Positions 46,238 to 64,000 of a stretch of 64,000 nucleotides of DNA are shown here, piece by piece. Origin of the DNA: Candidatus Coproplasma stercorigallinarum (lineage in GTDB: Bacteria; Bacillota; Clostridia; Christensenellales; Borkfalkiaceae); the NCBI GenBank assembly GCA_018712655.1, contig DVGQ01000019.1:856-64855 (forward strand), given 5' to 3'. Every line of letters begins with the position of its first letter. The first letter of the stretch is position 1. The notes under the pieces were generated by a model, which worked only from the letters and a program-made list of their open reading frames with translations, searched no databases and was not told where the DNA came from. A program made the translations under genes and the position numbers.

Positions 46238-46307
46238 AGTATATTTTATAAATCGCAAAAGTGTCAATATCTACCGCACGAACGATATTCTGTACCGCAC
46301 GAATCAA
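46238..46307 (-). promoter_or_regulatory. GH3-4 operon promoter with LytTR-type direct repeats
   Basis: Minus strand: TTGATTCGT (46307-46299) -12 nt- ATCGTTCGT (46286-46278) -10 nt- TTGACA (46267-46262) -18 nt- TATACT (46243-46238). An exact 11-mer TTCGTGCGGTA is repeated with a 21-nt period (plus-strand TACCGCACGAA at 46272-46282 and 46293-46303). Confidence 0.6.
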
Positions 46308-48670: not shown

Positions 48671-49363
48671 TCAGAACTTATATTCCTTTACATAAAACGC
48701 GCGGCAGGTATCTATGCAGAAACAGCCGAGAGGCCCGCCAAGCCACGTCCCCGTATCGAGGTGTATTTTGTAATAATCGCAAATATCGTCGCCGCGGCGG
48801 CCGTCGCGCTTATAGGCAAGAATTCTGTCCTCCCCGCACACGTTGCGCGTGGGAGTATGGCCGAAACAAACGCATTTGCAGTCTTTCGGGACGACCTCGG
48901 GGCGCATAAAGTTCCTGTCTTCCAGCAGAACAGCTTCGCGCGCCGATTGGGGCGGCACTATGCGGCAATTATCGTCCAGCGGCAGTCCCGCGTGCACGCA
49001 GATGAACTCCTCTTCCTCTATGTAGAGCGGCAGGGCTTCGAGCTTGTCTACCGTTTCCCAGCGCAGAAGTTTTCCGTCGCCGCCGAACCATCTTTGCAAA
49101 TCGGCGAGCACTTTATCGAAGTCGGAAGGCGACGACTTCATTACCGCCCAATAGTAGGCGAGAAAGCCGTATTCGTGGTTGCCGAGAATGCACTTTACGT
49201 TGGGCGCGTTCAGCAGAAAATCAAGCAGCCGTACGCTTTCGTCGCCCTTGTCCACCATATCGCCGCACACATACAGGACGTCGCTTGCCGAAAATTTAAT
49301 TTTATCAAGCAGGCGCATACAAAGCCCGTATTCGCCGTGGATATCAGAAATAACGTACCTCAT
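48671..49363 (-). CDS. PPP-family metallophosphoesterase (PrpE/ApaH/lambda-phosphatase-like)
   Basis: Signature motifs DIHG (VISDIHGEYG), GDMVDKG and GNHE in canonical order and spacing. Start set to ATG 49363; the listed ORF begins at TTG 49426. Confidence 0.8.
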   Translation of the reverse strand: MRYVISDIHGEYGLCMRLLDKIKFSASDVLYVCGDMVDKGDESVRLLDFLLNAPNVKCILGNHEYGFLAYYWAVMKSSPSDFDKVLADLQRWFGGDGKLLRWETVDKLEALPLYIEEEEFICVHAGLPLDDNCRIVPPQSAREAVLLEDRNFMRPEVVPKDCKCVCFGHTPTRNVCGEDRILAYKRDGRRGDDICDYYKIHLDTGTWLGGPLGCFCIDTCRAFYVKEYKF

Positions 49364-49508
49364 AAACAGTTTTCCGCCATAAGCATATAGTAGCGCCCGC
49401 ACAAAAACGTTGTTTGCCGCGCGCAAGACAGATAAGACCTCCTTTGCGGGGGTCTTGCGGCAACAAAACAGACATTAAAGAAAATTTACAACGCGTAAAC
49501 GCGCAGGT

Positions 49509-51671
49509 TCAGACGCCGTTTTCAACAATTTTATAGCCCATTGAAGATATTTCGCTGTAAAGGCGGTCCAAATCCATATAGTCGTACTGATAAATGTTAT
49601 ACAGCTCCCTCAGCCTTGAATCAGTCGGCGGCACATTGTTTATATCCTCGCCCGGATACATAACGCCGAATTTATATTCTATAAGCTCTTTCAGGCCGTA
49701 ATAGGTAGTGAGGCAGGCGTGCTGTTTGAGCGCCGTGTTTTTATGTGGCGCCACGATTTTTACGTTGCCCTCTTTATCCATCTCCTCTTTGGCGACTATA
49801 TCCTTCTTTTTCATCTGCTTGTAGTCATACAGAATGTACAGGGCGTTCCAGCGCAGATGTTCGATGAACGCCAGCACGTTGGACGACTGCAAGCCGAAAA
49901 AGAAACCGATATCGGCATAATTGTTTTCCCTGCCCGTATTTACGTATCTCTTATCGAATTCCTCTTCCGAAATTCCCGTATCGCCGTCGCCTGCGCGCTT
50001 TACCATATCAAACCCGAGCAGGTTGAGCTTGAACGGAAGGTTGAGGGCGTGATACAAATTCGACGCCTGTTCAATCATAGGGCGGCTTTCCCAATTTTCG
50101 CGCATAAGCTCGCGGCAGTCATAATTTTGCAGGCTCTTATCCAACGCCTCGCCCTGCTGCCCGACGGGAAGTTTGCGTATATCAGCCAGCCACTGCGGCA
50201 TATTGCCGATGCTGTCGTACAGCATATTGAGGCGGCGGGCAAGTTCAGAAAGTTCGTCGTTTACTATATAGCCGTGGGTATATATTTTGCTTTCGTCGCC
50301 GAAATAAATTACCTTTCCTCCGCCGAAATTTTCGGCGCTGCTCTTGGCCCTGACGAATATGCGGTAGTTTCCGTCTTCCGGCAGCAGCCTTCTGATGGTC
50401 TGCGCGTAAGAGGCGTCTTCCAGGTCGGCATTCAGCGAGATTATAAAGTAAGTGAAGCTGTTGTCCGTGACCAGTTCTTTAAACTTCTTTTTTGCCTCAA
50501 CCGAATTTATGTCGGTCTGACCTACTTCGGCTATGTCGCAAATCCTTTCGGGACGGGGGAAATCGCAGTCTTTGAAATCCTCGTCGAACTCGTAAAGCAT
50601 ACGCGAGAAAAATTCATTGTGCAGCGCCTCGCCCCTGTGGTCATAGATATAGTAATGCACGGGCTTCGATTGAAGTCTGTCGCCGCACGGGGCGGCAAAC
50701 TGGAACTGCATAGAGCACATTCTGAAAAGCTGATAGTTCATCTTGCCGAAGCCTATGAATACGATGTTTATATCCTTGTCGGGTTTAAGCGTATAATTTT
50801 CGTTGTAAAAGCTGCGGGGTATGAATTTGGTTACGGGATATTGCGCCACGAACTGCCGCGCGATAAGCTCGTGCTTGCTGAAACAACTTATGAACGAGCC
50901 CACCTTGTCGTCCGTATCCGCGATGAGGCGCTCCTTTATTATTTTTACGCTGTCCTGATTGGCTTCCATATTCAACGTCACCCTCTTACCGCCCCGTTTG
51001 ACGGTTATAAATTCTTCGATTACGCCTGTATACGATATATTGCAACCGCTGAAAAGTATAAGATTATATTCCTTGCCGCACAGTTTTTTGCCGAAATCTT
51101 TAAGCGCGCCACGGGCGACGGTGTAGCCGCCCTTGATAAGCTCGGCATAGCGGGCGCGGGTAACCGCAGGCATAAGCAGCAGACAGTTTTTATTGTTTTT
51201 TGCAAACCTTAGCGAATCTGCGCAGTCGCCTATGACTATGTCGCACCCTCTGCGCAGGGCGCGCCTTAAAGAAATGTAATTGCGTATGCGCGGGCTGAAA
51301 AAGCTGGCAACGCTTAAAACGACAGCCGCTCCGCCCGCAACGTAAGCCATTACGAACGCCGCGTAAAATACGGGATATTCATTGCATATGGGGGTTACGA
51401 GCGAGCTGTCGGCTTTGAATTTGGTTATAACTTCGAGAACGGAGCCGAGCAGCGAAAAGCAACTGAAAAAATCAAGGCCGTTGCCGTTGTAAACCCACGC
51501 CGCCATATGCAGAAAGTAAATGAGCATAAGCGTCGGCGCGAGGTATATCAGATTCTTTTTTGAAATTATCAGTTCGCCCCTGTCTTTAACCGTGCGCACA
51601 GTGGTGAAAGCTATGGCGAAAATCATCGCCGCAGATATTATCAACAATAAAATTCCAGTAACTAAAAACAT
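49509..51671 (-). CDS. Membrane protein: about 4 TM + Rossmann-like modules + C-terminal RyR-like domain
   Basis: N-terminal helices (LVTGILLLIISAAMIFAIAF, YPVFYAAFVMAYVAGGAAVVLSVASFF). Glycine-loop-like INIVFIGFGKMN. C-terminal segment with RyR-domain hallmarks (MIEQASNLYHALNLPFKLNLLGF, AFIEHLRWNALY, KQHACLTTYYGL, ISSMGYKIV). Confidence 0.55.
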   Translation of the reverse strand: MFLVTGILLLIISAAMIFAIAFTTVRTVKDRGELIISKKNLIYLAPTLMLIYFLHMAAWVYNGNGLDFFSCFSLLGSVLEVITKFKADSSLVTPICNEYPVFYAAFVMAYVAGGAAVVLSVASFFSPRIRNYISLRRALRRGCDIVIGDCADSLRFAKNNKNCLLLMPAVTRARYAELIKGGYTVARGALKDFGKKLCGKEYNLILFSGCNISYTGVIEEFITVKRGGKRVTLNMEANQDSVKIIKERLIADTDDKVGSFISCFSKHELIARQFVAQYPVTKFIPRSFYNENYTLKPDKDINIVFIGFGKMNYQLFRMCSMQFQFAAPCGDRLQSKPVHYYIYDHRGEALHNEFFSRMLYEFDEDFKDCDFPRPERICDIAEVGQTDINSVEAKKKFKELVTDNSFTYFIISLNADLEDASYAQTIRRLLPEDGNYRIFVRAKSSAENFGGGKVIYFGDESKIYTHGYIVNDELSELARRLNMLYDSIGNMPQWLADIRKLPVGQQGEALDKSLQNYDCRELMRENWESRPMIEQASNLYHALNLPFKLNLLGFDMVKRAGDGDTGISEEEFDKRYVNTGRENNYADIGFFFGLQSSNVLAFIEHLRWNALYILYDYKQMKKKDIVAKEEMDKEGNVKIVAPHKNTALKQHACLTTYYGLKELIEYKFGVMYPGEDINNVPPTDSRLRELYNIYQYDYMDLDRLYSEISSMGYKIVENGV

Positions 51672-51714: not shown

Positions 51715-53496
51715 TCAAAGATTTATTTCCGGACTGTTGTCCTTTACGTACGAACACCAGATGCCGTTTTCCACAATCTCTTCGCGGGCAATTTCCTTCA
51801 CAAACTTAGCTATCTCTTCCGCGGGGCGCGCCTTGGCCTCGCTCCACCTGGCATATGCCGAAGCGTAGAACATACTCATCTTGCGGTTGTCTTCCGCCTT
51901 GCGGCCGAATGAAAGTTTGCCGAAATAGCCCGTAAACAGCAGCGACGCCGCCGTCACCGTTCCCATCACTATTATGCCTGAGCTGCGCCAGGAAATTCCG
52001 CCCGCAAGTTCCCCGTTCCAGAACCACTCTTTGCCGAAGGCGCCAAGTATGTGCCCCGCCGCCTCCATTAAAAAGATTACGATGTATACCGCAACGGTGA
52101 TTATCGTAAGGCAGTTTGAAATCTTTGCATATTTTTCGGCTTTGTTTCTGTTTTTGACAAGTTTGTCCGTGTGATATCTGAGCTGACCGTCGGGATTTTT
52201 GCTGTTGCCTATCCACACGTCTATTATCTTCGTCGTTTCCATTTCGGGAACTTCGGCCGCGCTTACGGCGGCAACGGCCTGCAAAGCCTTGTATATCCAC
52301 GCAGAATCCACCTTCTGAGTCCAGGAATACAGCCTGCACACGTTGGCGAGTATCTGCTTTTCGCGCAGGCACAGCGACATATAGAACTGTATTCTGAACG
52401 CCTCTGAAAACGCCCTGTATTCGATATATTTTGAATGGTATCCCTTTTTGTTGCCCCGCACTATTATCCAGATAAGCGCGGCCACGGCGAGTGCGCACGG
52501 AAATATCATAAACGTCAGCGACGCGTCGTCGTACAGCATAAACGAAAATGCCACAAAGGTACCTATAATGGCTATGAGCAGTATTAACCTGTTGTAATAT
52601 TTCTGATTCCCGCCGAAAGAAACGGCGTCTGCCTTGGAATAGTGATAGCCTATATTTTTACGGTAATCGTCCAGCTCTTCGGGTCTGTCCCACAGCCTGC
52701 CGCCGCCTACGGCTCCCGCACAATTCTCGCCGTTGTACCTCACTGTTTTTGCTATTATTTCGGCCATATATGCGGGCATATCGTCGCATACGAAGTAATT
52801 GCCGAACTCCTCCGCACCCTTCTCTCCGGCGAGCGCGCCCGCCAGCCAGCGCCTGCGGACGGGCTGTTTTTCTCCGCCGCTTCTGCGGGCGTGCAGCCAC
52901 AGTACGGCGCAGTCGTTGAGTATTCCGGGATTGAACAGATGGTCGCCGTCAAGGAATTTGTGGCCGAGCGCAAAATTTATCACTTCGACTGTGCCGCACC
53001 CGAACTGCTTTTCCGGCGGGCACCCGTCCCAAAGGGCGAGCAGCACGTGGCAATGCTCAGCTATGTAAATCCCCGCCTGACGGTATTCGTAGTCGTCGGC
53101 GCCCATCTTAAATTCGCTGCCGAGCCACGCGGCATTCTTTTCAAGGTCGGGGGCAACCATTACCCGCTCTGACTTTGCAAGGTACGAACGCAGCTTTTCC
53201 GCGTCTTCGGCGTCGGTAAAACTTTTTATGTATTTTTCCTCGCTGCACGGCAGCACGGCATACACGGCTATGCCCATACCGAAGGCAACCTCCGCGCACA
53301 GCATATCCGCTCCCTGAGCAAACGCATTGAGCATTATGACGGGAGTATCGCCCCCGTCGCCGCCGCCCGAACAGGCCGACCTGATTTCCGAAAGCGCGGC
53401 GGCAACTTCACGTTTAAGTTCGTCCTTGTCCCTGCCGTCGATATTCCTGTGGCCCGTAACGCCTATGACGACGGGAATTCTTTCGCAACTCACCAT
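51715..53496 (-). CDS. SLOG-domain protein fused to a 4-TM, SLATT-like membrane module
   Basis: N-terminal Rossmannoid with SLOG hallmarks: IPVVIGVTGHR (Gly-rich loop after strand 1), NAFAQGADMLCAE, AVLP, ALWDG...GCGTVEVINFA. C-terminal half has four TM helices. The last pair is preceded and followed by amphipathic helices (RYHTDKLVKNRNKAEKYAKISN ... KLSFGRKAEDNRKMSMFYASAYARW), as in SLATT modules. Confidence 0.6.
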   Translation of the reverse strand: MVSCERIPVVIGVTGHRNIDGRDKDELKREVAAALSEIRSACSGGGDGGDTPVIMLNAFAQGADMLCAEVAFGMGIAVYAVLPCSEEKYIKSFTDAEDAEKLRSYLAKSERVMVAPDLEKNAAWLGSEFKMGADDYEYRQAGIYIAEHCHVLLALWDGCPPEKQFGCGTVEVINFALGHKFLDGDHLFNPGILNDCAVLWLHARRSGGEKQPVRRRWLAGALAGEKGAEEFGNYFVCDDMPAYMAEIIAKTVRYNGENCAGAVGGGRLWDRPEELDDYRKNIGYHYSKADAVSFGGNQKYYNRLILLIAIIGTFVAFSFMLYDDASLTFMIFPCALAVAALIWIIVRGNKKGYHSKYIEYRAFSEAFRIQFYMSLCLREKQILANVCRLYSWTQKVDSAWIYKALQAVAAVSAAEVPEMETTKIIDVWIGNSKNPDGQLRYHTDKLVKNRNKAEKYAKISNCLTIITVAVYIVIFLMEAAGHILGAFGKEWFWNGELAGGISWRSSGIIVMGTVTAASLLFTGYFGKLSFGRKAEDNRKMSMFYASAYARWSEAKARPAEEIAKFVKEIAREEIVENGIWCSYVKDNSPEINL

Positions 53497-53590: not shown

Positions 53591-54124
53591 CTAAATTTCC
53601 TGTTTTTTAATCTGCTCTGAAAAGTTGATATTGCGGTTGCCCCACGGAACAAGCACAAAATTTTTCAGCGGCTTCGAATAAATATCTATCGGATATATTT
53701 TGCAGGCGGAGTCTTCGTCGTTTATATATTGTTCGCAAACGTATCCGTTAGACTCGTAAAATTTTTTTGCAATTTCGTTTTCAAACCTGTCGGTATACAA
53801 TCTGCAAAATTTGAAGCCGCGCCTTTTTGCTTCCTCTTCAAAACGGCTTAGCGCCATACTTCCGAAGCCCTGCCGCCTGAATTCTTTCAGAATTCCGAAC
53901 CATCCGAGCCAGGCGCTTTCGGTATCGGCGGCATAATAATACAGCCCGCAGATTCCTATATTTTCTCCGCCGTGCCTGACTATCCAATAAACGTTGTCCG
54001 TAAGTTTTTCAACAGCCTCGCGGTAATTGACGTATGCGCTGTGCGATGGGAATAATTCGTTTTGTATTTTCAGTGCGACGTCAAAATTATCTCTGTTCAG
54101 ATTTACAAATTCAAGCGCGCTCAC
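53591..54124 (-). CDS. GNAT-family N-acetyltransferase
   Basis: Acetyl-CoA motif A: FGILKEFRRQGFGSMALSRFEEEAKRRG, with C-terminal FYESNGY. Start moved to GTG 54124, which gives a GTGA overlap with the TIR-gene stop and sits 7 nt after GGAG. The listed ORF starts at another GTG (54151). Confidence 0.8.
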   Translation of the reverse strand: MSALEFVNLNRDNFDVALKIQNELFPSHSAYVNYREAVEKLTDNVYWIVRHGGENIGICGLYYYAADTESAWLGWFGILKEFRRQGFGSMALSRFEEEAKRRGFKFCRLYTDRFENEIAKKFYESNGYVCEQYINDEDSACKIYPIDIYSKPLKNFVLVPWGNRNINFSEQIKKQEI

Positions 54125-55176
54125 TTTTTTTCTCCGTTTAGTTTTGAACACAATGAAGGGTATTTCTTTTGCAGATACGGATGATTTTTTATTTGCGAAA
54201 TATCTGCGTCATAAATCTTTCCGTCAGCCATATTTTTCGCAACGCACGTGAAGCCCAGGGACTGAACTACTTTTTCAAGGATGTGGGAATATACTGAAAT
54301 GCCTATCCTCTTTATAGCAATGCCTCTGTCGTACATATCTTCTATACGGCTGAACAGCTTATCCCACAGAAGCATCATATTTTTATTGTTTTCATATTCT
54401 TTCAGAATAGGCATAATTGCGATGTAGCAGTAAAATTCCCCGCCGAAATCGTAGAATTCAAGCATATCGGCGTCGACGATTTTTTCGCCGCGCAGAATGG
54501 AATTATAATTTTCCTCGTTCATTAGAACAAACTGCCAATAGCCGATTATGTTGTCATCTTTAACCAACAGCGAATATAATTCGGGATAATTGCTTACGTG
54601 GTCAAGCCACGAATCGACGTTGCCCTCTATGCTTTCGTTAATCGTAAAATCATTGTTGAGCGTAAGGTAGTCTATTTCAATTGTTTCCATTACGATTTTT
54701 TTTGCGTCATAGCCTATATTTTTTGCTTCTGCATAATCGAGGACGGTCGGCCCGGGATAATGCACCGCGCTCTCCTCTGTATTTTGGACGCTTGTGTTGT
54801 TTATCGCCGCAATCAATGCGTCAAGTCCGCCTTTGAAATCGGGAGCCGTTATCCAATGAGTGACGCCGAGGTAAAACTCCATAGCGTCTGACGGCACAGA
54901 ATCGTCGATTTTATAAGGAATGATAGTTTTATTGTGCAATACGGCGGAATTTATTTCGCGCAAAACATAGCCGGAAATATTTGATTCTTTGGTAAAAATC
55001 AAAGTTACCATATCCTGGGTTTTTATGGCGTCAACAATTTCGCACGCATAATCTTTTCCGGGTGTAATATCGCGGGGAGCAATATAACATTTAAGCCCGC
55101 GCTTTTCCAGCTCCTCAACGATGCGGAAAGCAATTTCTTTGTTGTGCGTGGAATACGATATAAACGTTGTTTTCAT
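54121..55176 (-). CDS. TIR-domain protein with an uncharacterised C-terminal domain of about 220 aa
   Basis: N-terminus TTFISYSTHNKEIAFRIVEELEKRGLKCYIAPRDITPGKDY...VTLIFTKESNISGYVLREINSAV...IIPYKID matches the bacterial TIR_2 pattern, including the conserved Glu after the S-x-[WY] element. The C-terminal part is an alpha/beta region that may be GNAT-like but lacks a clear Q/R-x-x-G-x-G/A motif. Start set to ATG 55176 behind AGGGGAA. Confidence 0.7.
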   Translation of the reverse strand: MKTTFISYSTHNKEIAFRIVEELEKRGLKCYIAPRDITPGKDYACEIVDAIKTQDMVTLIFTKESNISGYVLREINSAVLHNKTIIPYKIDDSVPSDAMEFYLGVTHWITAPDFKGGLDALIAAINNTSVQNTEESAVHYPGPTVLDYAEAKNIGYDAKKIVMETIEIDYLTLNNDFTINESIEGNVDSWLDHVSNYPELYSLLVKDDNIIGYWQFVLMNEENYNSILRGEKIVDADMLEFYDFGGEFYCYIAIMPILKEYENNKNMMLLWDKLFSRIEDMYDRGIAIKRIGISVYSHILEKVVQSLGFTCVAKNMADGKIYDADISQIKNHPYLQKKYPSLCSKLNGEKK

Positions 55177-55302
55177 AATTTTCCCCTGACCGTATAAATA
55201 TTGGTTTAATAATATAATAACATCACGGATATCCTTTGTCAATATCATAAAAATCCGATTTAATTCAACCGAAAAATATAATTTTCAAATTAAACACAGC
55301 TA

Positions 55303-55331
55303 TTGCAAACAGGAGGACTATTTGATATAAT
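55303..55331 (+). promoter_or_regulatory. Predicted promoter of the HD-RyR-SLOG gene
   Basis: TTGCAA (55303-55308), 17 nt, TATAAT (55326-55331), in an AT-rich divergent intergenic region. GGGGGAA RBS before ATG 55361. Confidence 0.55.
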
Positions 55332-55360
55332 TAAAATACAATACGCTTGGGGGAATACTT

Positions 55361-57631
55361 ATGAAAACGCTGGCAAAACTTGCCAATAAATTTTTTGAAA
55401 ACGTCTGCTTCGCCGAAATTCCCGGCACGGCCTGCCCGGAGAGCGACAGGCAGTGCTTTATAAGGGCGCTGAACCAATTTTTGAGTTCGGGCGACAAGGG
55501 CGACGCATTTACCGTATATTTTTGTTTCAGCGAAATATTCAGGCTGTTCGGCAAAGGCTACGCAAACACCCAAAAATTGCTCGAACTGCTTTCAGACCAC
55601 GAATACCACTCGGGCGAACTGCTTTCAAAACACCGCGACCACTACTCCCACTCCGTCTACGTTTTTGCGTTAGGCCTGGCAATATATGCCAACGACGGCG
55701 TATTCCGCTCGGCATTTCTGCGATTTTACGGGCAGAAAGACGACACCCTGTCGCGCAGGGATTTTTTGTACTGCTGGGGAATGACGGCGCTGTTCCACGA
55801 CACGGGATATCCCTTTCAGCTGGCCTACGAACAGATTAAAAATTACTGCGAAGATTTGTGGGGCAGCGGCGCTGCAACCAACCCGTTCGTGACATTCGGG
55901 AACTACGATAATTTTACAGGCATAGCGGAAGAAGACGGCAGGCGCATAAGCGCGGCGCTGAAAACAGACAAAAAGTTCGCCTCGCTGAACGACCTGTTCG
56001 CATACGGGCTGAACCTGCGCTTCGGCTATGACGAAGAGGATATGCGCGTGCGCCTTAAAAAGCGCATACTCGAACAGAGGACTTTTCTGGACCACGGCTA
56101 TTTCAGCGCCGCCATACTTGCGCGCCAATTGCTTGAAAGGCCCGACATAGAGCTTACCCCAAAGCGGCTGGACGTGCTGACGGCGATAGTCCTGCACAAC
56201 AGCCTTTCGCGCTACGACTTCAACAACGAGCGCCCCGCGTCCCCCGACAATCATCCCCTTGCATATCTACTGATTCTGTGCGACGAACTGCAAAACTGGG
56301 ACAGGCAGGCCTACGGCAAGGCGAGCAAATACGACCCCGTCGCGTGGGACATAAGGCTGGCGATAAACGATGATTACATAAGCATCACGTATATTTTTGA
56401 CAGCAGCACAGCCACCGACCGCGAGAGCGGCGAAGACAGGATAAACAAACATTACGGCGATATTCAAAAAGGCAAATTCGTAAAGAACATACTCGGCGGC
56501 GACGGCAGAGGCGGACTTTTGAAAAGCTCGCTGAACCTTACGGCCGACGTAGCCGTGGCGCCCAAAGAAAAGCGCAACAAACTTTACGCCTCCGAAAACA
56601 ACTTCATAAATCTGTGCGATTTTGCAAGGGCCATTCACGCGAGTTACAGTAAACTTTGCCTGGAAACGGGATTGGAAAAACCGAAAGCCTTTGACGACCT
56701 TTCGCTGGAATTCAAAGTTTCAAACATAGAACAGGCCAAATCTTACGCCCGGAAACTTGAACTTATAAACTGTTTTTACAGCAGCAAAGACCTGGACTAT
56801 CCCGTAGTGGAAAACTTTAAAGACGGCGATTACGGGGCAATAGGTTCAGACAACCTCGGCTTTTTGTGCAGGGAAGAGCACGTGCGCTGGGTAAAGGAAA
56901 AGCTGGGAATGGGCTGGAAATACGGCACAGGCTACTCCTCCTCCGCCGAGCGCAATGAAAAGAAGATTCACAAAGACATAGTCCCCTACGAAATGCTTGC
57001 GCCGGAAGAGCAGGCCAAAGACGAACTGATGGTGAACAACATCATACCGTTTTTAAGAAAGTTCGGGCACAATATCAGAATTTATAACTACCGCATAGGC
57101 AGAAAGCCCGACCTGGAAATTGCGGGAACAGGCCACAGATTCTTTACCGACAACCCTGCCAGGCTGAAAGAGCAGATTAAAAAACAACTTGAAAAATACA
57201 GCAAGACCAACCGCGTGGTCGTGCGTACCTGTTTTGCACACGGCGCCGACCAGCTGATAGCCGAATGCGCAAACGAAATGGGCATAACAACAAAGGCCGT
57301 TTTGCCCGTCGGATACGAAGACTATATAAAAATGGTGCGCAACGACTGCCTGGCGCACGGCTATGCCTACACCGAAAAGGACGAACTTAAATTGCGGCAT
57401 CTGCTTGCCCAGACGGTAGTATGCAAAGTAGTATCCTCGCCCGACGGCGGATACAAAGCGGCGATAAATTACATAATGAAGAAGTGCGACAAGGTGATTG
57501 CCGTATGCGACTGCGAATATGCAGACGAAAGCGGCGCAGAAAGATGCGGCACCGCGCGCTGCCTTGAAATTGCAAAGCGGTACAGCCTTACCCCAGGCGA
57601 CGACATAAAAATCATACGTTGCCATAAATAA
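55361..57631 (+). CDS. Three-domain protein: HD phosphohydrolase + RyR domain + C-terminal SLOG domain
   Basis: HD: HRDHYSHSVYVFALGL ... ALFHDTGYP ... DHGYFSA ... LHN ... LILCDELQNWDR. RyR: FARAIHASY...VSNIEQAKSYARKL...CREEHVRWVKEKLGMGWKYG...KIHKDIVPYEMLAPEEQAKDELMVNNI. SLOG: LEIAGTGHR...CFAHGADQLIAECA...AVLP...AVCD...RCGTARCLEIA, the same motif series as in 51715..53496. Confidence 0.65.
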   Translation: MKTLAKLANKFFENVCFAEIPGTACPESDRQCFIRALNQFLSSGDKGDAFTVYFCFSEIFRLFGKGYANTQKLLELLSDHEYHSGELLSKHRDHYSHSVYVFALGLAIYANDGVFRSAFLRFYGQKDDTLSRRDFLYCWGMTALFHDTGYPFQLAYEQIKNYCEDLWGSGAATNPFVTFGNYDNFTGIAEEDGRRISAALKTDKKFASLNDLFAYGLNLRFGYDEEDMRVRLKKRILEQRTFLDHGYFSAAILARQLLERPDIELTPKRLDVLTAIVLHNSLSRYDFNNERPASPDNHPLAYLLILCDELQNWDRQAYGKASKYDPVAWDIRLAINDDYISITYIFDSSTATDRESGEDRINKHYGDIQKGKFVKNILGGDGRGGLLKSSLNLTADVAVAPKEKRNKLYASENNFINLCDFARAIHASYSKLCLETGLEKPKAFDDLSLEFKVSNIEQAKSYARKLELINCFYSSKDLDYPVVENFKDGDYGAIGSDNLGFLCREEHVRWVKEKLGMGWKYGTGYSSSAERNEKKIHKDIVPYEMLAPEEQAKDELMVNNIIPFLRKFGHNIRIYNYRIGRKPDLEIAGTGHRFFTDNPARLKEQIKKQLEKYSKTNRVVVRTCFAHGADQLIAECANEMGITTKAVLPVGYEDYIKMVRNDCLAHGYAYTEKDELKLRHLLAQTVVCKVVSSPDGGYKAAINYIMKKCDKVIAVCDCEYADESGAERCGTARCLEIAKRYSLTPGDDIKIIRCHK

Positions 57632-57646
57632 AAAACATAAACCGAA

Positions 57647-57672
57647 CGGGCGGCCTTTAAAAAGGCCGCCCG
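57647..57672. terminator. Bidirectional terminator between convergent genes
   Basis: CGGGCGGCCTTT-aa-AAAGGCCGCCCG, a 12-bp stem. An A-rich run lies upstream on the plus strand (U-tract for the minus strand). Confidence 0.65.
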
Positions 57673-57702: not shown

Positions 57703-60585
57703 TCACGTATATTTTATCATCTTGAAGTATTTTTCCTTATGGTTATTGCCTTCGCCTCTGTTGTCGTAGGCGGACACATAAGGAATGAATCCCATAAGGT
57801 TATACAGGCTCATCGCCGAAATGTTATTTTCGTAGACAGACAAAACCACGTTTACGCCCGTCTGCTTTTCGGCAACCCTTATAATATTGTTCAGCATACA
57901 TTTGCCGTAGCCGCGGTTGCGGTAGTTTTCGTCCACGCATATGTCCGAAACATAATAATTGTCGCCGATTGCATCGTCGAACGTGTCGCACAGACTTTCA
58001 AAGGCCGACCTGGTTTCCTCAGTTACAGGCACCTTTGCCGCATTGAAGGCGTTGACCATTACATTTTCGTCCCAGGCGGGAAGTGTGCGGTAAAGCGTTG
58101 CCGCGGCAATCACTCCGTTATCGTCCGCTCCCGAGATGCGCAGCAGCCGAACATATCTTTTATTGAATACCGAATGCCCCTTGTCGAAGAGTATTTCCAG
58201 CACTTTTACGGCATTTTCCATATTGCCGAACATACGGCGGTACATAATATCGGAACAATAAATCAGTTCCGCCGCTTTTTTGTAATCTTCTTTATTTTCA
58301 AGCTGTTCAAACGACGCGCTGACGTTTGGCAGATACGCGTTGTACGGAATTATGTGGGGATTTATCCAAACATACTCCACCTTTCCCGAACGGCCCGGTA
58401 TGTGCAGGCACTTTTTTACGTTGGGCACACAGTAATACGCCTCGCCCGTACGCAATACCTCGTTTGAAATTATCTTTATCCTTATGGCCCTCTTGTTTAT
58501 CTCGCTGTCTACCGAAAGATATGCGTACCTGTACCCGTCCTGCGACATAACGCTCTGCGAGCATATTCCTATTACGGGATATATCGCGCCTTCGATTGGA
58601 GCGTCCTTTTCGGGCGAACCGTCGCGCATATAGCCTAAATACCCGCAGAAATTTTCGTGCAGCTTTCCGAGCCAGGAATCAACCGAACGCACGTCGCCGA
58701 ACGAAGATATTATGCGCTGTTTGAACGCGGCAAGCCTGTCGGAATTTATCAGGCTGCGCTTGCCTGTCATATCGTAAAACTGCTCGTTCTTGTTGGTGTT
58801 GCGCACATTCAGCGAAGCATTGAGTTTTTCAAGCTCTTCAAAGGAATCTTTTACGAGAGATTTAAGTTTTTCAAGCGTACTTCCGTCGAAATCCTTTATC
58901 AGGCACATAGTATTGTAGCGCTCGTAGATATTTCTGCGGGCGACAGACGTGGCCTGACGGAAGAAATCATAGCTTATGGAAGAGAGCTGTTTGCCACCCG
59001 AGTCAGAGAAGAACAGCATTTCACTCTCTTCTATATCCCTGATTTTCTGCTTATCGTAATAGCTGAGCAACCCGTCGTAAAAAACAACTATAAACATATT
59101 GAAGTTTATAATTTTGTTTACGTAATAAATGACCTTTTCCTTCGGGTTCAGCGAAGCATTTTCGTAAACATTGTTGATGTCATCCAGGATTTCGGCAACC
59201 GACGAGAGCGACTCGTTGAAAGACACGCTCACTTCGTTTGCCGTGAGCAGTTTGGTGGCGAAAAATATGAGCGCCTGAACCTGACAGCTTACGATGTTGT
59301 TCGCATTCCTTAAAGTAAGTTTGCTCGTCGGGTCGCGTATTATCTCGTAAGTATCTTCAAGTTTTTTCACGTTCTCGCCAAACCTGAGCCTGAACGCGTT
59401 TTTTACTGCGTTATAGCTCAAATCGGTATTTTTAAACAGATATGTAAGCAGATTATATATTCCGACTTCGAGAAGCAGAAAGATAAAAATTTCGTCCCAA
59501 TGAATTATCTGGGAATTCCCGAGCTTTTTGAAAACTTCTCCGTAATCGTTGCGATAGTGGTTATATACCTTCCTTTTGCTGTCTATGCTTATAAGGTCAG
59601 AGATGGTCATTGCAAGGTACTTTATGTACTTGTTGTCTACGAAGAAGAAATCCCTAAAAAAATAGTTCTCGCTGCCTCCCGGCACGTTGAAGAGCCTGTA
59701 TTTGAACATAAAGTCTTCTATCGCGGTGTCGCTCACAACGCACACTTTATATCCCTTACCCGCCGCGTTTTCTTCGGAAGACTTGTCCAGAAAAACAATT
59801 TTGTACTCCATCCTGGCAAACAGCGGCGCATATTCCGCCGCAAGCATCTGGCTTTTTTGCGGATTGTCTGCCGTGAATTTGCGGGGGTCGTCAATCCACA
59901 CGCCGTAAAGATAGTCAATCTGGCCGTTGATTTCGGTAAGCAGTTCGTCGAGGCACAGCTTTTCGCCGTCGATGGTCAGGTTTACCGTCCTCAGCGGCCT
60001 GTTGCAGCAGGGCAGCGGCACGTATTCGGCGGAAGCGTTCCCCAAAAACGGGAAGGCACGGAAAAACCTTTTAAGGCTATCGAACCCGAACTGCGCATCG
60101 TAACGACTGGAAAGCATACGCTTTTTAAGGGCGAAAATGAACTTGCTGAGGTCGTTGCCGAGCACCGAAAAATTGAAGCACCCCTCCATTCCCACCTTTT
60201 GTATAAATCCGTCGGCAGGGGAAAGCGAGGAATCGACTTGAAGATTGAGCAATACGTTTTCCACCAGATTGAAGTCAAGCCGCCTGGTGGAATAACATTC
60301 GTCGAACATATTGTAAAGGCGCACCATCGAATTGGAAAAAGACGCTATCTCGCGAGCGCGCTCTTCGGCGTCGAGTTCTTCGAACCACGCTTTATAGCTT
60401 ACAAATTTTTTGTAAGTTATTAAAGTGACAAGATAGAGCGTATTTTTGAAATAATCGATATATTTGCCTATATTTGAAAGGAAAGAGCTGCTTGTTTCGC
60501 CCGACTCAAAGATGATATCCCTCAGCACGCTGTCGGGAATCAGCCTGATTATTTCGTTGCGCCGGGCAGTAAGTTCGTCAGTCAT
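57703..60585 (-). CDS. Large (960 aa) uncharacterised protein with a C-terminal GNAT acetyltransferase domain
   Basis: The last ~170 aa carry GNAT motif A (ICVDENYRNRGYGKCMLNNIIRVAEK) and LYNLMGF. The first ~780 aa are helical, N/K/Y/F-rich, with no motif I recognise. ATG overlaps the ParA-like gene stop by 8 nt. Confidence 0.55.
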   Translation of the reverse strand: MTDELTARRNEIIRLIPDSVLRDIIFESGETSSSFLSNIGKYIDYFKNTLYLVTLITYKKFVSYKAWFEELDAEERAREIASFSNSMVRLYNMFDECYSTRRLDFNLVENVLLNLQVDSSLSPADGFIQKVGMEGCFNFSVLGNDLSKFIFALKKRMLSSRYDAQFGFDSLKRFFRAFPFLGNASAEYVPLPCCNRPLRTVNLTIDGEKLCLDELLTEINGQIDYLYGVWIDDPRKFTADNPQKSQMLAAEYAPLFARMEYKIVFLDKSSEENAAGKGYKVCVVSDTAIEDFMFKYRLFNVPGGSENYFFRDFFFVDNKYIKYLAMTISDLISIDSKRKVYNHYRNDYGEVFKKLGNSQIIHWDEIFIFLLLEVGIYNLLTYLFKNTDLSYNAVKNAFRLRFGENVKKLEDTYEIIRDPTSKLTLRNANNIVSCQVQALIFFATKLLTANEVSVSFNESLSSVAEILDDINNVYENASLNPKEKVIYYVNKIINFNMFIVVFYDGLLSYYDKQKIRDIEESEMLFFSDSGGKQLSSISYDFFRQATSVARRNIYERYNTMCLIKDFDGSTLEKLKSLVKDSFEELEKLNASLNVRNTNKNEQFYDMTGKRSLINSDRLAAFKQRIISSFGDVRSVDSWLGKLHENFCGYLGYMRDGSPEKDAPIEGAIYPVIGICSQSVMSQDGYRYAYLSVDSEINKRAIRIKIISNEVLRTGEAYYCVPNVKKCLHIPGRSGKVEYVWINPHIIPYNAYLPNVSASFEQLENKEDYKKAAELIYCSDIMYRRMFGNMENAVKVLEILFDKGHSVFNKRYVRLLRISGADDNGVIAAATLYRTLPAWDENVMVNAFNAAKVPVTEETRSAFESLCDTFDDAIGDNYYVSDICVDENYRNRGYGKCMLNNIIRVAEKQTGVNVVLSVYENNISAMSLYNLMGFIPYVSAYDNRGEGNNHKEKYFKMIKYT

Positions 60586-61474
60586 CGGCTATCACCTTCG
60601 CAAGTTTTTCGTATTTTCTCTGCGCTTCGGCCTCGTCTTCGGCAAGTTTATAAATTTCTGCCTTGGTAAGCTCGTATTCCTTGGCTTTGAGGCGCAGATT
60701 GGTCTCTTCGAACTTGAACAGCCTTACTTCGTGAATACCTCCTTCGTCTATCAGGTCGGTAGTCACCTTGTTGTGTCCCGCTTCGCCCGCCACAGTAAGG
60801 TCGTCCTTAATTCTGCGCAGAATATTTTCGATGCTGTATATGGTGCCTTCGGCAGACGGCACGGCGTTAGGAACTATTATATAATCCTTGTTGTCGAAAT
60901 TTTTCTGACGGGCGATGAATTCCCTGGTGCCCTCCTTGAACTGCTTGGTTATTCGCATAGCAACGACTATTTTATCGGAAATGCGCAGCGCGACGCTGGC
61001 GGGCAGCTGGCCGCCGGCGGGGTTATCCATAACCAGGGCTTTGCACCCGAATTTTTCGAGCCTGTTGGCGAAATTTTCAAGTTCGACGTTGCGTCCGTCG
61101 TAGTTGCTGTCGCCGTTGAGCTTTTCGTTTGAATGCGCGGTGATAAACAGTATATTGCCGTTCTTGCCCTCGCCGAGGCCGAGCATTTTTCCGACGGGAA
61201 TCATCTTTCCCAGAATCTCTTCCTTGGTGGCAAAGGCGTCCGCCGTAATATCGGTCTGGTTGAGAACTTTTACCACGTCGAGTTTATCGGCAGTATCGGC
61301 GCCCTCGTCCACGAGCAGATAAGAAAGACCTTTGCTGTCTATGTCGAGGTCGAGCACAACAACAGGCTCTTCGGGCGTGGCACCAAGCTCGTCGGCCAGA
61401 TACGATATCGTATTGTAAAGCATCGATGTTCTGCCTGCGCCGCCCTTATACGAAAAAAACGAAACTTTAAGCAT
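60578..61474 (-). CDS. ParA/MinD-like (SIMIBI class) P-loop ATPase with deviant Walker A
   Basis: KVSFFSYKGGAGRTS (deviant Walker A, with Arg in place of the usual second Lys). Walker A-prime VVVLDLDIDSKGLS. Walker B ALVMDNPAGG. C-terminal charged helix. Confidence 0.7.
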   Translation of the reverse strand: MLKVSFFSYKGGAGRTSMLYNTISYLADELGATPEEPVVVLDLDIDSKGLSYLLVDEGADTADKLDVVKVLNQTDITADAFATKEEILGKMIPVGKMLGLGEGKNGNILFITAHSNEKLNGDSNYDGRNVELENFANRLEKFGCKALVMDNPAGGQLPASVALRISDKIVVAMRITKQFKEGTREFIARQKNFDNKDYIIVPNAVPSAEGTIYSIENILRRIKDDLTVAGEAGHNKVTTDLIDEGGIHEVRLFKFEETNLRLKAKEYELTKAEIYKLAEDEAEAQRKYEKLAKVIADD

Positions 61475-61518: not shown

Positions 61519-63534
61519 TTAAAATTTAAACAACTCTGACAGTCTGGCAAGCAGAACGTTTTTCTGCTGCTCGTCGCTCACGCCGCGTATGCTTTCTTTT
61601 ATCTTATCGGAAGTTGTGGCGTCGGCGAGCGTTGAAAGGAACAATATGCTTTGCAGGCGCCTGTCGGTCACCAGCCTGGCCTTCATCGTTTCCTTTTCCG
61701 CGCTCGCGCAGGTAAGCGCTTTTACGATATAGTCGACGGCATACCCGAACTGCTCTTCGAAGCACTTTTCGAAATACTCGCCAAAACTTTTTTCAAAGAG
61801 CGACTGAGCCAGTTTTTCCACCTCGGTATCGAGCGGCGAACGTTTATTGAGAGCGTCGTTCAAAGCAACATTGTATCTCTCCTCCCTGTCCCTCAGCTCC
61901 TTTTCATACCTTACGCGTTCGGCGGCAAGCTCGTCCGCTTTCTCCTTTGCCTTGCCGCGCTGAACGTCCGCATCGAGAAGTTCTTTTTCGTATTTTTCGT
62001 AATACAGATAGAACGAGTCGATTGCATAAATATAGTACAGGTTATTGTTTACGCTGAAACCTTCTTTGCGCCAGAACCATCCATCGGGAGATTTGTTTTC
62101 AAGTATCCACACAAGGTTGTCGCGCATCTCCTTTTGGGGATATTTGATTATGTAGTTGAATATAAGGTTATACGTGTTGCAATACAGCGGAACAAGCTCG
62201 TACGGAGCTATCGTGCTCTTTTTGCGCCAGTTCTGCATTATGTGGCTGACACTGTCGGGGCACTTGTCTTCGCCGAGGGAATAGTTTTCAATCAAATCTT
62301 CGCGGCTCTTGTCCTTATAGTCCACATAAATCTTCTTTATGTTGGTGAGCGCGAACTGAATACTCTGGTATATGCTCGACTTGCCGATGCTGAGATAGTC
62401 GTCGTCGACGCCGGCGTTTATCAGAATGGCGAAGGCAAACAGCGAGTTCATTATGTGGTTGTTTTTGCTGTTGCCTATCGCGCTGACAGAGATGGGGTTG
62501 AGGTTTTTATCCACGTAATCGAACGAGATGTTGACGTTGTTCCTTTTCATCTTCGTTTCGATATATCTGCCCGCCGACGCGGTAATTTTACGGAGCGTAT
62601 CAAGCACTTCGCTGTTTGCGCCGTAAAACTTTTTATCGCTCAGGTACTTGGCATACCTCTTTTTGTCTTCATCGCTCAGGCTGTTTTTGTCGCGGTCGCC
62701 GAAAAGCGCCGTGCCGTTATCGAGCTCTTCGTATAAATCTTCCATAGAGTTATATACCGAGATGAAGGCATTGGTGCCGTAGTATGTGTAATATAACGAA
62801 GTATCATATTCGGCGGCATCGTCTTCGGCAGGCTTCTGGAAAGCCCAGCCGCGGTGAGTCACCACCGAACCTACATACGTTCGGCCGCTCTTTTTGCCGT
62901 CGATTTCATAAACGAACGGTTCTGCGTTCACCAAGGCGGCGTCGTTCAGCATAGCGGAAGCATCGACAATCAGCTTTTCTGAATATCTGAGCAGCCCCGC
63001 CGCGTCGTCGACCGTGTCGCCGCAGATTTTTACGGCAACGGGCAGCTTGGCCCCGCCGTCTTCGTACAGCGCATCCAGAAGGTCGTCGCGCAGGTCCACT
63101 ATTGTTGAAACGACTTTCGATGCGCTTTCAACATACGTCGTAATTTTGTAATCGGCATTTTCCCAATAAGGAGTGGCGTCGAACACCTTCTCTCCGCCCT
63201 GATACACGCAGGCAAAGACCTTTTCGATAAGCCCGAAATAAATGTCGTCGTACTGGCTTATGTCCACGCCCAGCGATTTAAGTTCGAGAAACGTCGACAG
63301 CGCCATTATGTGCGTGATGAGCCCGAACTTCTGCCTGTAATCTTTATCGTCAAGCGGAAAACTGCCCGCCTTTTTATCGTAAAACTTTACAAAATCTTTT
63401 AAAATTTTTGCACCGACTTTATCCGCAGGCTGATATGCGTAAATCATTCTGTCGCTGCCTGCGCCGGGAATTCCCCCTATCTTGCTTTTGGTTATAATTT
63501 CGAGTATATCTTCGTAGTTGCCTGTGGTTCCCAT
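61519..63534 (-). CDS. Uncharacterised 671-aa protein (helical repeat N-region, C-terminal coiled coil)
   Basis: Coding-like ORF with a 3-nt gap to the upstream gene. Repeated helix-end aromatic patterns (TTYVESASKVVSTI, SLYYTYYGTNAFISVY, SPDGWFWRKEG, NLYYIYAIDSFYLYY) may indicate an alpha/alpha-toroid-like fold. Residues ~500-560 are a K/E/R coiled coil. No motif recognised with confidence. Confidence 0.45.
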   Translation of the reverse strand: MGTTGNYEDILEIITKSKIGGIPGAGSDRMIYAYQPADKVGAKILKDFVKFYDKKAGSFPLDDKDYRQKFGLITHIMALSTFLELKSLGVDISQYDDIYFGLIEKVFACVYQGGEKVFDATPYWENADYKITTYVESASKVVSTIVDLRDDLLDALYEDGGAKLPVAVKICGDTVDDAAGLLRYSEKLIVDASAMLNDAALVNAEPFVYEIDGKKSGRTYVGSVVTHRGWAFQKPAEDDAAEYDTSLYYTYYGTNAFISVYNSMEDLYEELDNGTALFGDRDKNSLSDEDKKRYAKYLSDKKFYGANSEVLDTLRKITASAGRYIETKMKRNNVNISFDYVDKNLNPISVSAIGNSKNNHIMNSLFAFAILINAGVDDDYLSIGKSSIYQSIQFALTNIKKIYVDYKDKSREDLIENYSLGEDKCPDSVSHIMQNWRKKSTIAPYELVPLYCNTYNLIFNYIIKYPQKEMRDNLVWILENKSPDGWFWRKEGFSVNNNLYYIYAIDSFYLYYEKYEKELLDADVQRGKAKEKADELAAERVRYEKELRDREERYNVALNDALNKRSPLDTEVEKLAQSLFEKSFGEYFEKCFEEQFGYAVDYIVKALTCASAEKETMKARLVTDRRLQSILFLSTLADATTSDKIKESIRGVSDEQQKNVLLARLSELFKF

Positions 63535-63537
63535 AGT

Positions 63538-64000
63538 TTATTTCCTCCTGTTTATTTTATCGTCATCGAGCACAAGCACGAGTCTTATACCCGCCGTAAA
63601 CTGATTGTTTTCAAAATTGACGTATCCCGTAAGCGGGCGGTTGGTCGAGTTATACAAAAGCAGATTGCCGCTGCCGTCCTTCACCCAGAATGCGCGCAGG
63701 CTTTGCGTGCGGCGGCTGTCGGCATAGTCGGTGGGAACTGCGGGGCCTATAACTTCGCCGAACTTGTCGATGAGCGATTTTTCGATAAGCCGCAGACCTA
63801 CAACCGATTCCTCCCCTTCAATGCCGAATTTTTTTGCCTCTATGTCCTCTATTGCAGAATAATCTATAAAATCAAGGCAATATCTGGAAACAAAATACAG
63901 AAGATTTTTATCGCGGCTGAACATATCCCATACTATCGGAACAGCTTTTTCGCCGTCGCTCTGAGGATATTCGCCGAGGCTGTATTCGCGGAGCTTTCCG
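63538..64000 (-). CDS. Uncharacterised protein, C-terminal part (gene continues beyond the right edge)
   Basis: The frame stays open from 63925 to base 64000 (...GKLREYSLGEYPQSDGEKAVPIVWD before the listed Met). The stop lies 3 nt before the next gene's ATG, so this is the upstream member of the same operon. Confidence 0.45.
   Translation of the reverse strand, partial: GKLREYSLGEYPQSDGEKAVPIVWDMFSRDKNLLYFVSRYCLDFIDYSAIEDIEAKKFGIEGEESVVGLRLIEKSLIDKFGEVIGPAVPTDYADSRRTQSLRAFWVKDGSGNLLLYNSTNRPLTGYVNFENNQFTAGIRLVLVLDDDKINRRK

Follow-up and report, generated by a model that had tools for sequence, protein, structure and literature searches.

The 64,000-nucleotide stretch of Candidatus Coproplasma stercorigallinarum DNA analyzed here (contig DVGQ01000019.1; hereafter the window) contains, at positions 55361 to 57631, a gene whose 756-residue product joins a probable HD-type hydrolase to a RyR (or R12) domain and a SLOG domain, and which lies among genes for TIR proteins. 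A hydrolase fused to two pockets of the cyclic ADP-ribose (cADPR) type and kept in the company of TIR genes is probably a new type of signal-responsive anti-phage component, and we assign a probability of about one half to the reading that it acts as an effector that responds to the signal of a Thoeris-like TIR immune cluster.

The ligand, the mode of activation, the HD substrate and the defense function that we infer for this protein can be put together as follows. Upon infection, one or both of the neighboring TIR proteins would convert NAD+ into a signal derived from ADP-ribose (ADPR), probably a cADPR isomer. This signal would bind to the RyR domain, which is probably dimeric, and perhaps also to the SLOG domain of YpsA-like type, and ligand-driven assembly or allostery would then switch on the N-terminal binuclear HD-type phosphohydrolase. 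The activated enzyme would degrade nucleic acid or the nucleotide pool and so stop phage replication, while the same signal would act on two co-encoded proteins, one with a membrane-Rossmann-RyR organization (membrane-RyR protein) and one in which a SLOG domain is followed by four transmembrane helices (SLOG-4TM protein).

In the original prediction, the protein was described as an unusual fusion, divergent from a TIR gene, that is either a second signal-activated effector or a signal-degrading regulator of the system. The divergent arrangement is confirmed by a TIR_2 gene on the opposite strand, 112 bp away (54121-55248). The two proposed roles still appear to be the right pair, and the comparative data lean toward the effector without settling the choice.

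Domains of the HD-RyR-SLOG protein

With its own promoter, ribosome-binding site and terminator hairpin, the gene is an intact transcription unit by itself. Its features are as follows.

55303..55331, + strand: sigma-70-type promoter, TTGCAA-17-TATAAT with a TG extended -10 element (10/12 matches)
55349..55353, + strand: Shine-Dalgarno sequence GGGGG, 7 nt 5' of the ATG, read from the sequence
55361..57631, + strand: complete HD-like/RyR/SLOG protein, 756 amino acids (aa), with an ATG-to-stop open reading frame (ORF); P0001 is 99% identical, and homologs number more than 1,500
55361..56335, + strand: all-helical domain at the N-terminus, aa 1-325, probably a metal-dependent phosphohydrolase of a divergent HD type (residue conservation, sub-threshold Pfam HD match, Foldseek match to exopolyphosphatase)
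56336..56575, + strand: small beta-rich linker domain, aa 326-405, not assigned to any family (secondary structure of AlphaFold2 models)
56594..57085, + strand: RyR/R12 domain, aa 412-575, a single repeat (Pfam PF02026, profile search of the PDB, residue mapping onto RyDEP)
57086..57628, + strand: C-terminal SLOG domain of the YpsA-like clade, aa 576-756 (Foldseek match to 2nx2, hhalign match to the N-terminus of p593, alignment)
57647..57672, no strand: GC-rich hairpin 3' of the stop codon, with an 11-bp stem containing 9 GC pairs

The near-consensus promoter that had been reported upstream of the gene is thus present, and the translation contains every string previously quoted from it: HRDHYSH, LFHDTGYP, DHGYF, CDELQNWD, GTGHR, HGADQL, AVLP and CGTARCLE, together with the two strings given as the RyR match, EEHVRWVKEKLGMGWKYG and KIHKDIVPYEMLAPEEQAKDE. 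The hairpin stands between this gene and the convergent gene for p960, and is likely a two-way terminator. When the full-length protein was compared with Pfam, NCBIfam, PADLOC and the PDB sequences, nothing was matched except RyR.

The identity of the RyR domain is, as judged from sequence comparison, certain. The match to PF02026 covers residues 503-573 and, at 31.6 bits, exceeds the curated threshold of 27.4; the same model is matched by each of the 38 aligned family members, and a profile of residues 412-580 retrieves Bacteroides and mammalian RyR repeat structures from the PDB with an E-value of 1.6e-18. Lopez Rivera et al. (bioRxiv, 29 May 2026; PMC13232231) have characterized the mycobacteriophage RyR/R12 protein RyDEP as a homodimeric glycosidase that converts 2'cADPR and 3'cADPR to ADPR, in which the catalytic dyad consists of H75 and D117, with W78 stacked on the adenine and H100 in contact with the phosphates; these ligand-binding and catalytic residues are conserved across PF02026. 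Six of eight further phage homologs tested in the same study bind 2'/3'cADPR and none of the eight cleaves it, and two phage homologs characterized in detail have nanomolar affinity. Since phage RyR/R12 proteins bind or hydrolyze these signals, the earlier statement that the role of the bacterial RyR domain is unknown no longer fully holds.

Mapping of the four RyDEP residues, checked on an alignment of the Bacteroides repeats, places H75, W78, H100 and D117 at H507, W510, H537 and D554. All four are therefore kept, and the spacing differs by a 5-residue insertion (3/30/17, against 3/25/17 in RyDEP). The pocket histidine, tryptophan and aspartate are retained in 90-97 of about 100 aligned distant relatives, and H507 and D554, the equivalents of the catalytic dyad, are invariant. 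These residues suggest a pocket of the kind known to bind TIR-made cADPR isomers, and make the domain a candidate binder. Both proteins are linked to TIR or Thoeris signaling; however, whereas RyDEP is a small, single-domain, viral protein of counter-defense, the protein studied here is a chromosomal fusion of 756 aa beside TIR genes.

The SLOG assignment is borne out by structure prediction. The entire protein was modeled with AlphaFold2 from 38 sequences, with a predicted local distance difference test score (pLDDT) of 84.2 and a predicted TM-score of 0.86, and the model's top Foldseek match in the PDB is Bacillus subtilis YpsA (2nx2; E 4e-5, probability 1.0, TM-score 0.69 on the query), followed by ShosA, DprA, a Moco carrier and LOG, all of which are SLOG-fold proteins. 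Pfam models for YpsA, YAcAr and DprA match weakly, in just 2-3 of the 38 family members. The proposed paralogy with the SLOG domain encoded at 51715-53496 is likewise upheld, as hhalign aligns the two at 99.2% probability (E 2e-19, residues 6-187 of that protein) and, independently, tblastn matches the N-terminus of that protein to the C-termini of homologs of the fusion.

The motifs of the SLOG domain are GTGHR, GAD..E, LP, D717 and T731, of which GTGHR, GAD and E635 are invariant in the family. With YpsA, the best structural match for aa 576-756, the domain shares the G-x-G-H-R-type N-terminal loop, the GAD..E helix and C-terminal D...(G)GT elements; in contrast, YpsA stands alone and is linked to cell division, and the C-terminal glycine loop is degenerate in the fusion. 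There, the family motif WDG..ELPL.D..G.PINRGGT is shortened in the subclade of this protein to CDCEYADESGAERCGT, and the alignment shows that WDG...RGGT has been replaced by CDC...CGT. In this protein and its close relatives, the shortened loop (57500-57560, aa 714-734) reads CDCEYADESGAERCGTARC and holds four cysteines, which may indicate altered or relaxed ligand binding, or a metal site. A catalytic role of the LOG type is unlikely, as a loop of the PGGxGTxxE type is not conserved. The SLOG domains that sense cADPR fall into the YpsA-like clade (Iyer et al. 2022; PMC9503650).

Of the three domain assignments, that of the N-terminal domain is the weakest: no significant Pfam, NCBIfam or PDB sequence match was obtained for it, and the main argument comes from its conserved residues. 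The candidate metal ligands H97, H146-D147, D244-H245, H279-N280 and D308 are retained in 118-124 of 126 representatives with at most 50% mutual identity, and a wider set (R92-D93-H94, H97-S98, H146-D147-x-G-Y, D244-H245, H279-N280 and D308-E-x-Q..R315) in 112-124 of them. Because this H..HD..DH..HN..D set is nearly invariant, the domain appears to be an active enzyme. Its pattern resembles the H..HD..H..H..D layout of binuclear HD enzymes and suggests a conserved active site, so that the domain is probably a very divergent HD hydrolase. When N-terminal sequences were scanned one by one, the HD family PF01966 was the sole family to recur, in 9 of 16 and 8 of 20 sequences (best E 9.5e-4).

An AlphaFold2 model of residues 1-405 is all-helical (pLDDT 81.5), and its top Foldseek matches in the PDB are the HD-like C-terminal domains of exopolyphosphatase (3rf0 and 1u6z; E 6e-3, probability 0.82); no match was found in BFVD. 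The domain has in common with binuclear HD phosphohydrolases (HD-GYP, PgpH, the HD domains of Cas3 and Cas10, and the PPX/GppA fold match) an H...HD...H...H...D set on a domain predicted to be all-helical, but it differs from them in lacking an above-threshold profile match, in the weakness of the structural likeness, and in an insertion of about 100 residues after the HD dyad, ahead of the next motif. The HD call made earlier stands up, its motif set being present and conserved, although the profile and fold matches fall below threshold. A reading of 'HDIGYPF..H' as dGTPase- or SAMHD1-like is unsupported, no such structure appearing in the Foldseek lists.

The fusion proved to be anything but rare. 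Relatives retrieved by a word-indexed search numbered 1,524 at 90% clustering; they form a large conserved family in which the best 120 are 51-99% identical and full length (742-804 aa), except for two that are truncated C-terminally. Almost all come from metagenome-assembled genomes of gut Clostridia, Christensenellales and Bacilli and, where their sources name them, the name given is 'RyR domain-containing protein' or 'hypothetical'. When the N-terminal domain was used in an exhaustive profile search, 2,135 representatives were obtained at 50% clustering, and among the best 150 of these the architectures were distributed as follows.

HD-RyR: 70
HD-RyR-SLOG: 23
HD (split)-RyR: 14
HD-RyR-RyR: 6
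HD-HD-RyR-SLOG-SLOG: 1
HD only, mostly short fragments: 36

The N-terminal domain is hence coupled to RyR in 114 of the 150, an association that favors an effector, and the counts imply that HD-RyR is the ancient unit, to which SLOG was added in one branch. In the literature, no description was found of an architecture joining RyR with SLOG, with or without TIR.

Genomic neighborhoods of the family

ORFs were called and clustered in 71 genome loci and their domains were labeled by iterated profiles; the counts refer to the 68 loci with a full-length homolog and to partners within 10 kb of it. The most frequent partner is not an adjoining TIR gene but the membrane-RyR protein (the product of 49509-51671 or a member of its homologous family; 32/68 loci), with the module TIR-p671-KGGVGR ATPase-p960. 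A TIR gene is present in 27/68 loci, a KGGVGR-motif ParA-like ATPase in 15/68 (14 of which also have TIR), and another SLOG protein in 5/68, while 22/68 loci contain none of these four. The concern raised at the outset, that the architecture might be common in contexts unlinked to TIR or SLOG, thus applies in part, to these 22 partner-less loci.

The linkage to TIR is upheld. The position of the TIR gene peaks at the adjacent gene, with 14 cases at +/-1, 5 at +/-2 and 2 at +/-3, and in many loci the adjacent TIR gene lies on the same strand at a gap of -8 to 47 bp. The distance to a membrane-RyR or TIR gene on the same strand is often 1-34 bp, and either gene order is seen. One recurrent operon (L043 and L053) consists of membrane-RyR, the HD-RyR-SLOG gene, TIR-LRR_5, p671-like, KGGVGR ATPase, p960-like and two AdoMet_dc genes; L060 and the truncated L042 hold most of it. 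Other loci have a radical-SAM gene in the lead and TIR after p960, and elsewhere the homologs sit in operons of six to seven genes with the KGGVGR ATPase. Distant HD-RyR relatives that lack SLOG (31-36% identity) stand directly upstream of TIR in a two-gene arrangement (L067, L068 and L138) or near TIR genes (L136); two-gene pairs with TIR were seen solely among these distant relatives.

A scan of metagenomes from the ATPase side shows a core of TIR-p671-ATPase-p960 with a variable flanking slot. The slot is occupied by membrane-RyR alone in about 12 loci, by HD-RyR(-SLOG) in 8 loci (6 of them also with membrane-RyR) and by SLOG-X in 5 loci, while nothing was recognized there in about 10 informative loci. 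In four loci (L017, L034, L049 and L056), a protein of the type studied here is the sole RyR protein beside the TIR-ATPase core. A flank in which membrane-RyR, HD-RyR(-SLOG) and SLOG-X can be swapped beside a TIR core is what would be expected of interchangeable effectors with a shared sensor.

The module itself, TIR-p671-KGGVGR ParA-like ATPase-p960, was found in more than 50 metagenome loci (L072-L122), and its accessories vary between a GNAT protein, a tandem AdoMet decarboxylase-like protein and a radical-SAM protein; no description of the KGGVGR module was found in the literature. One TIR-ATPase locus (L113) contains a 116-aa ORF with RyR only, beside the membrane-RyR gene. In two further loci (L023 and L065), a 987-aa TIR-STAND-HD protein directly adjoins a homolog of the fusion; its YfbR-like HD domain was not matched by the N-terminal profile in hhalign, a comparison that is uninformative because the template was one sequence.

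Alternative readings and the relation to Thoeris

In favor of the effector count the two sensor-type domains, the nearly invariant putative catalytic set, the coupling of its domain to RyR, the closeness to TIR genes, the interchangeable flank of the TIR-ATPase core, and the precedent of Thoeris loci with two effectors for one signal (Yirmiya et al. 2025). Several observations weigh against the effector. Some concern the domains: the N-terminal domain scores only 13.9-15.5 bits against PF01966, below the cut-off of 22 (E 0.022-0.066), its hidden Markov model profiles, whether from 16 close sequences or from 20 diverse ones, retrieved no HD protein from the PDB sequences, and the best PDB match of the residue 1-405 model in Foldseek has a TM-score of just 0.17-0.33. 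In addition, the glycine-rich C-terminal loop of the SLOG domain is degenerate in the subclade of this protein, and the RyR domain, with its catalytic dyad intact, could break the signal down rather than sense it. Others concern the genomic setting: beyond the 22 loci that lack a TIR, membrane-RyR or ATPase partner, several pairs of HD-RyR-SLOG and membrane-RyR genes have no TIR gene nearby, and in the window the gene is on its own promoter, not co-transcribed with either TIR gene. Finally, in the loci found from the ATPase side the protein usually accompanies the membrane-RyR protein and does not replace it, which fits an accessory or regulatory role too.

The intact dyad is central to the strongest alternative, which we consider less likely than the effector: that the protein clears the signal, as an off-switch or a guard against autoimmunity. 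Its RyR domain would be a glycosidase that opens 2'/3'cADPR to ADPR and thereby resets the membrane-RyR and SLOG-4TM effectors; in further steps, the HD domain would cut a phosphoanhydride or phosphoester of the product, and the SLOG domain would capture or further process the nucleotide. The invariance of the H507 and D554 equivalents of the RyDEP dyad (PMC13232231) favors such a glycosidase; yet the same four residues are kept in the RyDEP homologs that only bind, and therefore do not show catalysis. A clearing role is also favored by the handling of nucleotides common to all three domains, by the N-glycosidase activity of SLOG relatives of the LOG clade (PMC9503650), by the strong promoter that the gene has for itself, and by its presence in ATPase-centered loci mostly alongside the membrane-RyR protein, possibly the true effector. 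However, where the protein is the sole RyR/SLOG protein beside a TIR core, and where distant HD-RyR relatives are paired with TIR, this explanation would leave a regulator without a recognizable effector. Furthermore, the Thoeris literature cited here yielded no precedent for a host-encoded multidomain degrader of Thoeris signals. A mixed model is possible, by analogy with Csm6, whose CARF domain also degrades its own activator and so acts as a built-in timer: the protein may be a sensor that slowly destroys what activates it.

A second alternative, which appears improbable, is that of a self-contained nucleotide-sensing hydrolase of general physiology, active in stress or in control of the nucleotide pool, that comes to lie near TIR genes merely through shared variable islands. 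The 22 partner-less loci keep this explanation alive, and it would suit both the great frequency of the family in gut Clostridia and Bacilli and the fact that the nearest SLOG structure, YpsA, is of a protein related to cell division and not to defense. Chance proximity does not, however, account well for the sharp peak of TIR at the adjacent gene, for operon-like gaps in both gene orders, or for a linkage that persists in relatives of just 31-36% identity; moreover, the copy in the window lies in an island of low GC content among two TIR genes and two other RyR/SLOG proteins.

That the protein serves a mobile element in counter-defense, acting like RyDEP as a sponge for Thoeris signals or as their degrader, is highly improbable despite the precedent of phage RyR-domain proteins (PMC13232231), because relatives are nearly absent from viruses (2 hits among 2.9 million IMG/VR contigs and 1 among 50,697 phage records, all three without SLOG), the family is co-operonic with TIR in many chromosomal loci, no phage or integrase genes were seen around the gene in the window, and an enzyme fusion of 756 aa is unlike the small sponge proteins.

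The effector reading places the protein close to Thoeris without making it a member. Yirmiya et al. 2025 (bioRxiv 10.64898/2025.12.03.692087) described 29 Thoeris configurations, which include SLATT and ion-channel effectors and a 'SLOG and 4TM' candidate that was not validated, as well as loci in which two effectors answer one signal; its text and the supplements searched contain no mention of RyR, PF02026, PF01966 or an HD effector. Nor was any paper found that puts RyR domains on the host side of TIR signaling. As in Thoeris, a TIR gene is adjacent to the candidate effector, and a second lies in the neighboring operon. On the other hand, PADLOC and NCBIfam gave no hit to a described effector (ThsA, ThsC to ThsL), and in place of a simple TIR-plus-effector operon, the gene in the window forms a transcription unit of its own, flanked by two operons of several genes each. 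Its predicted logic would thus be Thoeris-like, yet it belongs to no described Thoeris type and is recognized by no defense-system model.

The closest comparison is with ThsA, the SIR2-SLOG protein of type I Thoeris. Both proteins join an N-terminal enzyme to a C-terminal SLOG-type sensor beside TIR genes, and the expected logic is the same, with a TIR product acting on the sensor to turn on the enzyme. They differ in output, which is an HD-like hydrolase here and a SIR2 NADase in ThsA, and in the additional RyR domain, which here separates the enzyme from SLOG and is conserved more deeply than SLOG. The two proteins differ in their SLOG domains as well, that of the fusion being closest to YpsA with no ThsA structure among its top 50 Foldseek hits, and no Thoeris model of PADLOC or NCBIfam matches the protein. 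A looser parallel exists with the sensor-effector fusions of CARF and SAVED domains in type III CRISPR and CBASS (for example Csm6), where a ligand-binding domain governs a fused hydrolase; as the folds, ligands and signal-making enzymes are unrelated, this is an analogy only.

To our knowledge, before May 2026 no function of the RyR domain was known other than in animal calcium channels, and the functional data so far come just from phage proteins that neutralize Thoeris signals. With the present protein and its relatives, the host too has this ligand pocket, attached to an enzyme as well as to membrane proteins and linked to TIR genes. This raises a broader possibility, which we put forward tentatively and with somewhat less than even confidence: host RyR (R12) domains would be immune sensor modules for TIR-made signals of the cADPR type; HD-RyR(-SLOG) proteins (more than 2,000 clusters) and membrane-RyR proteins would form a large undescribed class of Thoeris-like effectors on a new TIR-p671-KGGVGR ATPase-p960 sensing core; and the membrane-RyR proteins would be prokaryotic forerunners of the cADPR-modulated ryanodine-receptor channels. 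Were this the case, RyR would be a third sensor fold in TIR immune signaling, beside SLOG and Macro; a function would be gained for a very abundant family of gut Firmicutes that is so far annotated only as 'RyR domain-containing' or 'hypothetical'; a new multi-gene TIR-ATPase system would be defined; and the long-debated link between cADPR and the ryanodine receptor would become testable in a simple bacterial protein.

The gene cluster at 49.5-64 kb

The genes surrounding the HD-RyR-SLOG gene in the window are the following.

49509..51671, - strand: p720, in which transmembrane helices at the N-terminus precede a Rossmann-like region and, at the C-terminus, a divergent RyR domain, aa 525-665 (homology and iterated profile)
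51715..53496, - strand: p593, a YpsA-like SLOG domain (aa 6-187) and four transmembrane helices (hhalign; weak DUF4231/SLATT match)
53591..54151, - strand: GNAT acetyltransferase in the TIR operon (Pfam)
54121..55248, - strand: TIR_2-domain protein, 375 aa as the longest ORF, divergent from the HD-RyR-SLOG gene (Pfam)
57703..60585, - strand: p960, a conserved protein with a C-terminal GNAT domain, last gene of the TIR-p671-ATPase-p960 module (Pfam, neighborhood)
60578..61474, - strand: KGGVGR-motif ParA-like ATPase (NCBIfam NF047398, PADLOC PDC-M28B)
61519..63534, - strand: p671, a conserved module protein (neighborhood clustering)
63538..64000, - strand: the C-terminal 153 aa of TIR339, a TIR protein of 339 aa whose gene opens the module and runs past the end of the window (complete in L073)

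Within about 14.5 kb, the cluster contains TIR genes, RyR proteins and SLOG proteins, two of each. The unit TIR339-p671-KGGVGR ATPase-p960(GNAT) is convergent with HD-RyR-SLOG, which in turn is divergent from TIR375-GNAT-SLOG/4TM-membrane/Rossmann/RyR. The second TIR gene was recognized through L073, a near-identical copy of the locus in which the ATPase is 100% identical and a full-length TIR339 heads the p671-ATPase-p960 operon; a 128-aa ORF at the window edge is part of this protein.

The second RyR domain announced for the cluster was located at the C-terminus of p720. While a direct hhalign comparison of the RyR region of the fusion with the p720 family gave a probability of just 8%, the identity of the domain holds because p720 is homologous over its full length to a transmembrane-Rossmann-RyR family with a Pfam RyR match (99.6%), the iterated profile matches with an E-value of 2e-18, and the EH.RW, H and D motifs are conserved in 30 homologs. 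On this basis p720 is a candidate cADPR-gated membrane effector. The product of 51715..53496 is likewise a predicted membrane effector, and would fit the candidates that Yirmiya et al. 2025 classed as 'SLOG and 4TM'.

In the divergent TIR protein, a conserved Glu of the catalytic type lies within LREINSAV. A near-consensus promoter (TTGACA-17-TATTAT, 55242 to 55214, - strand) falls inside the 5' end of the longest TIR ORF, so the real start is probably Met25 (MKTTFISYS, near 55176). The C-terminal ~200 aa of this protein have no family assignment, and its gene shares 31 nt with the GNAT gene. Elsewhere in the cluster a GNAT domain forms the C-terminus of p960, and other loci have separate GNAT genes; this recurrence hints at a modified signal or substrate. 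PADLOC recognized in the window just the TIR proteins, weakly, and the ATPase, as the candidate PDC-M28B; it has no model for p671, p960, c6, c21, c8 or c9, and Pfam gave no assignment for p671 or for p960 outside its C-terminal GNAT domain.

The GC content is 0.43 at 54-56 kb, the junction of the TIR and HD-RyR-SLOG genes, against 0.50-0.57 in the upstream sugar-utilization region, and the defense cluster looks like an acquired island; no tRNA genes were found in the 64-kb window. The upstream region (1-46000) contains genes for an Fe-hydrogenase, ABC transporters, GH2, four GH3 paralogs and MFS. A GHKL histidine kinase and a LytTR response regulator (46304-48390, - strand) adjoin the cluster and are not found beside the family elsewhere. 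Between these and the cluster, 82 nt downstream of the membrane-RyR gene, lies a gene for a calcineurin-like metallophosphoesterase (48671-49426, - strand) that is not conserved in other loci. Enzymes of the calcineurin-like superfamily (ADPRibase-Mn) cleave ADPR and cADPR, and by analogy this protein could be a signal-clearing enzyme.

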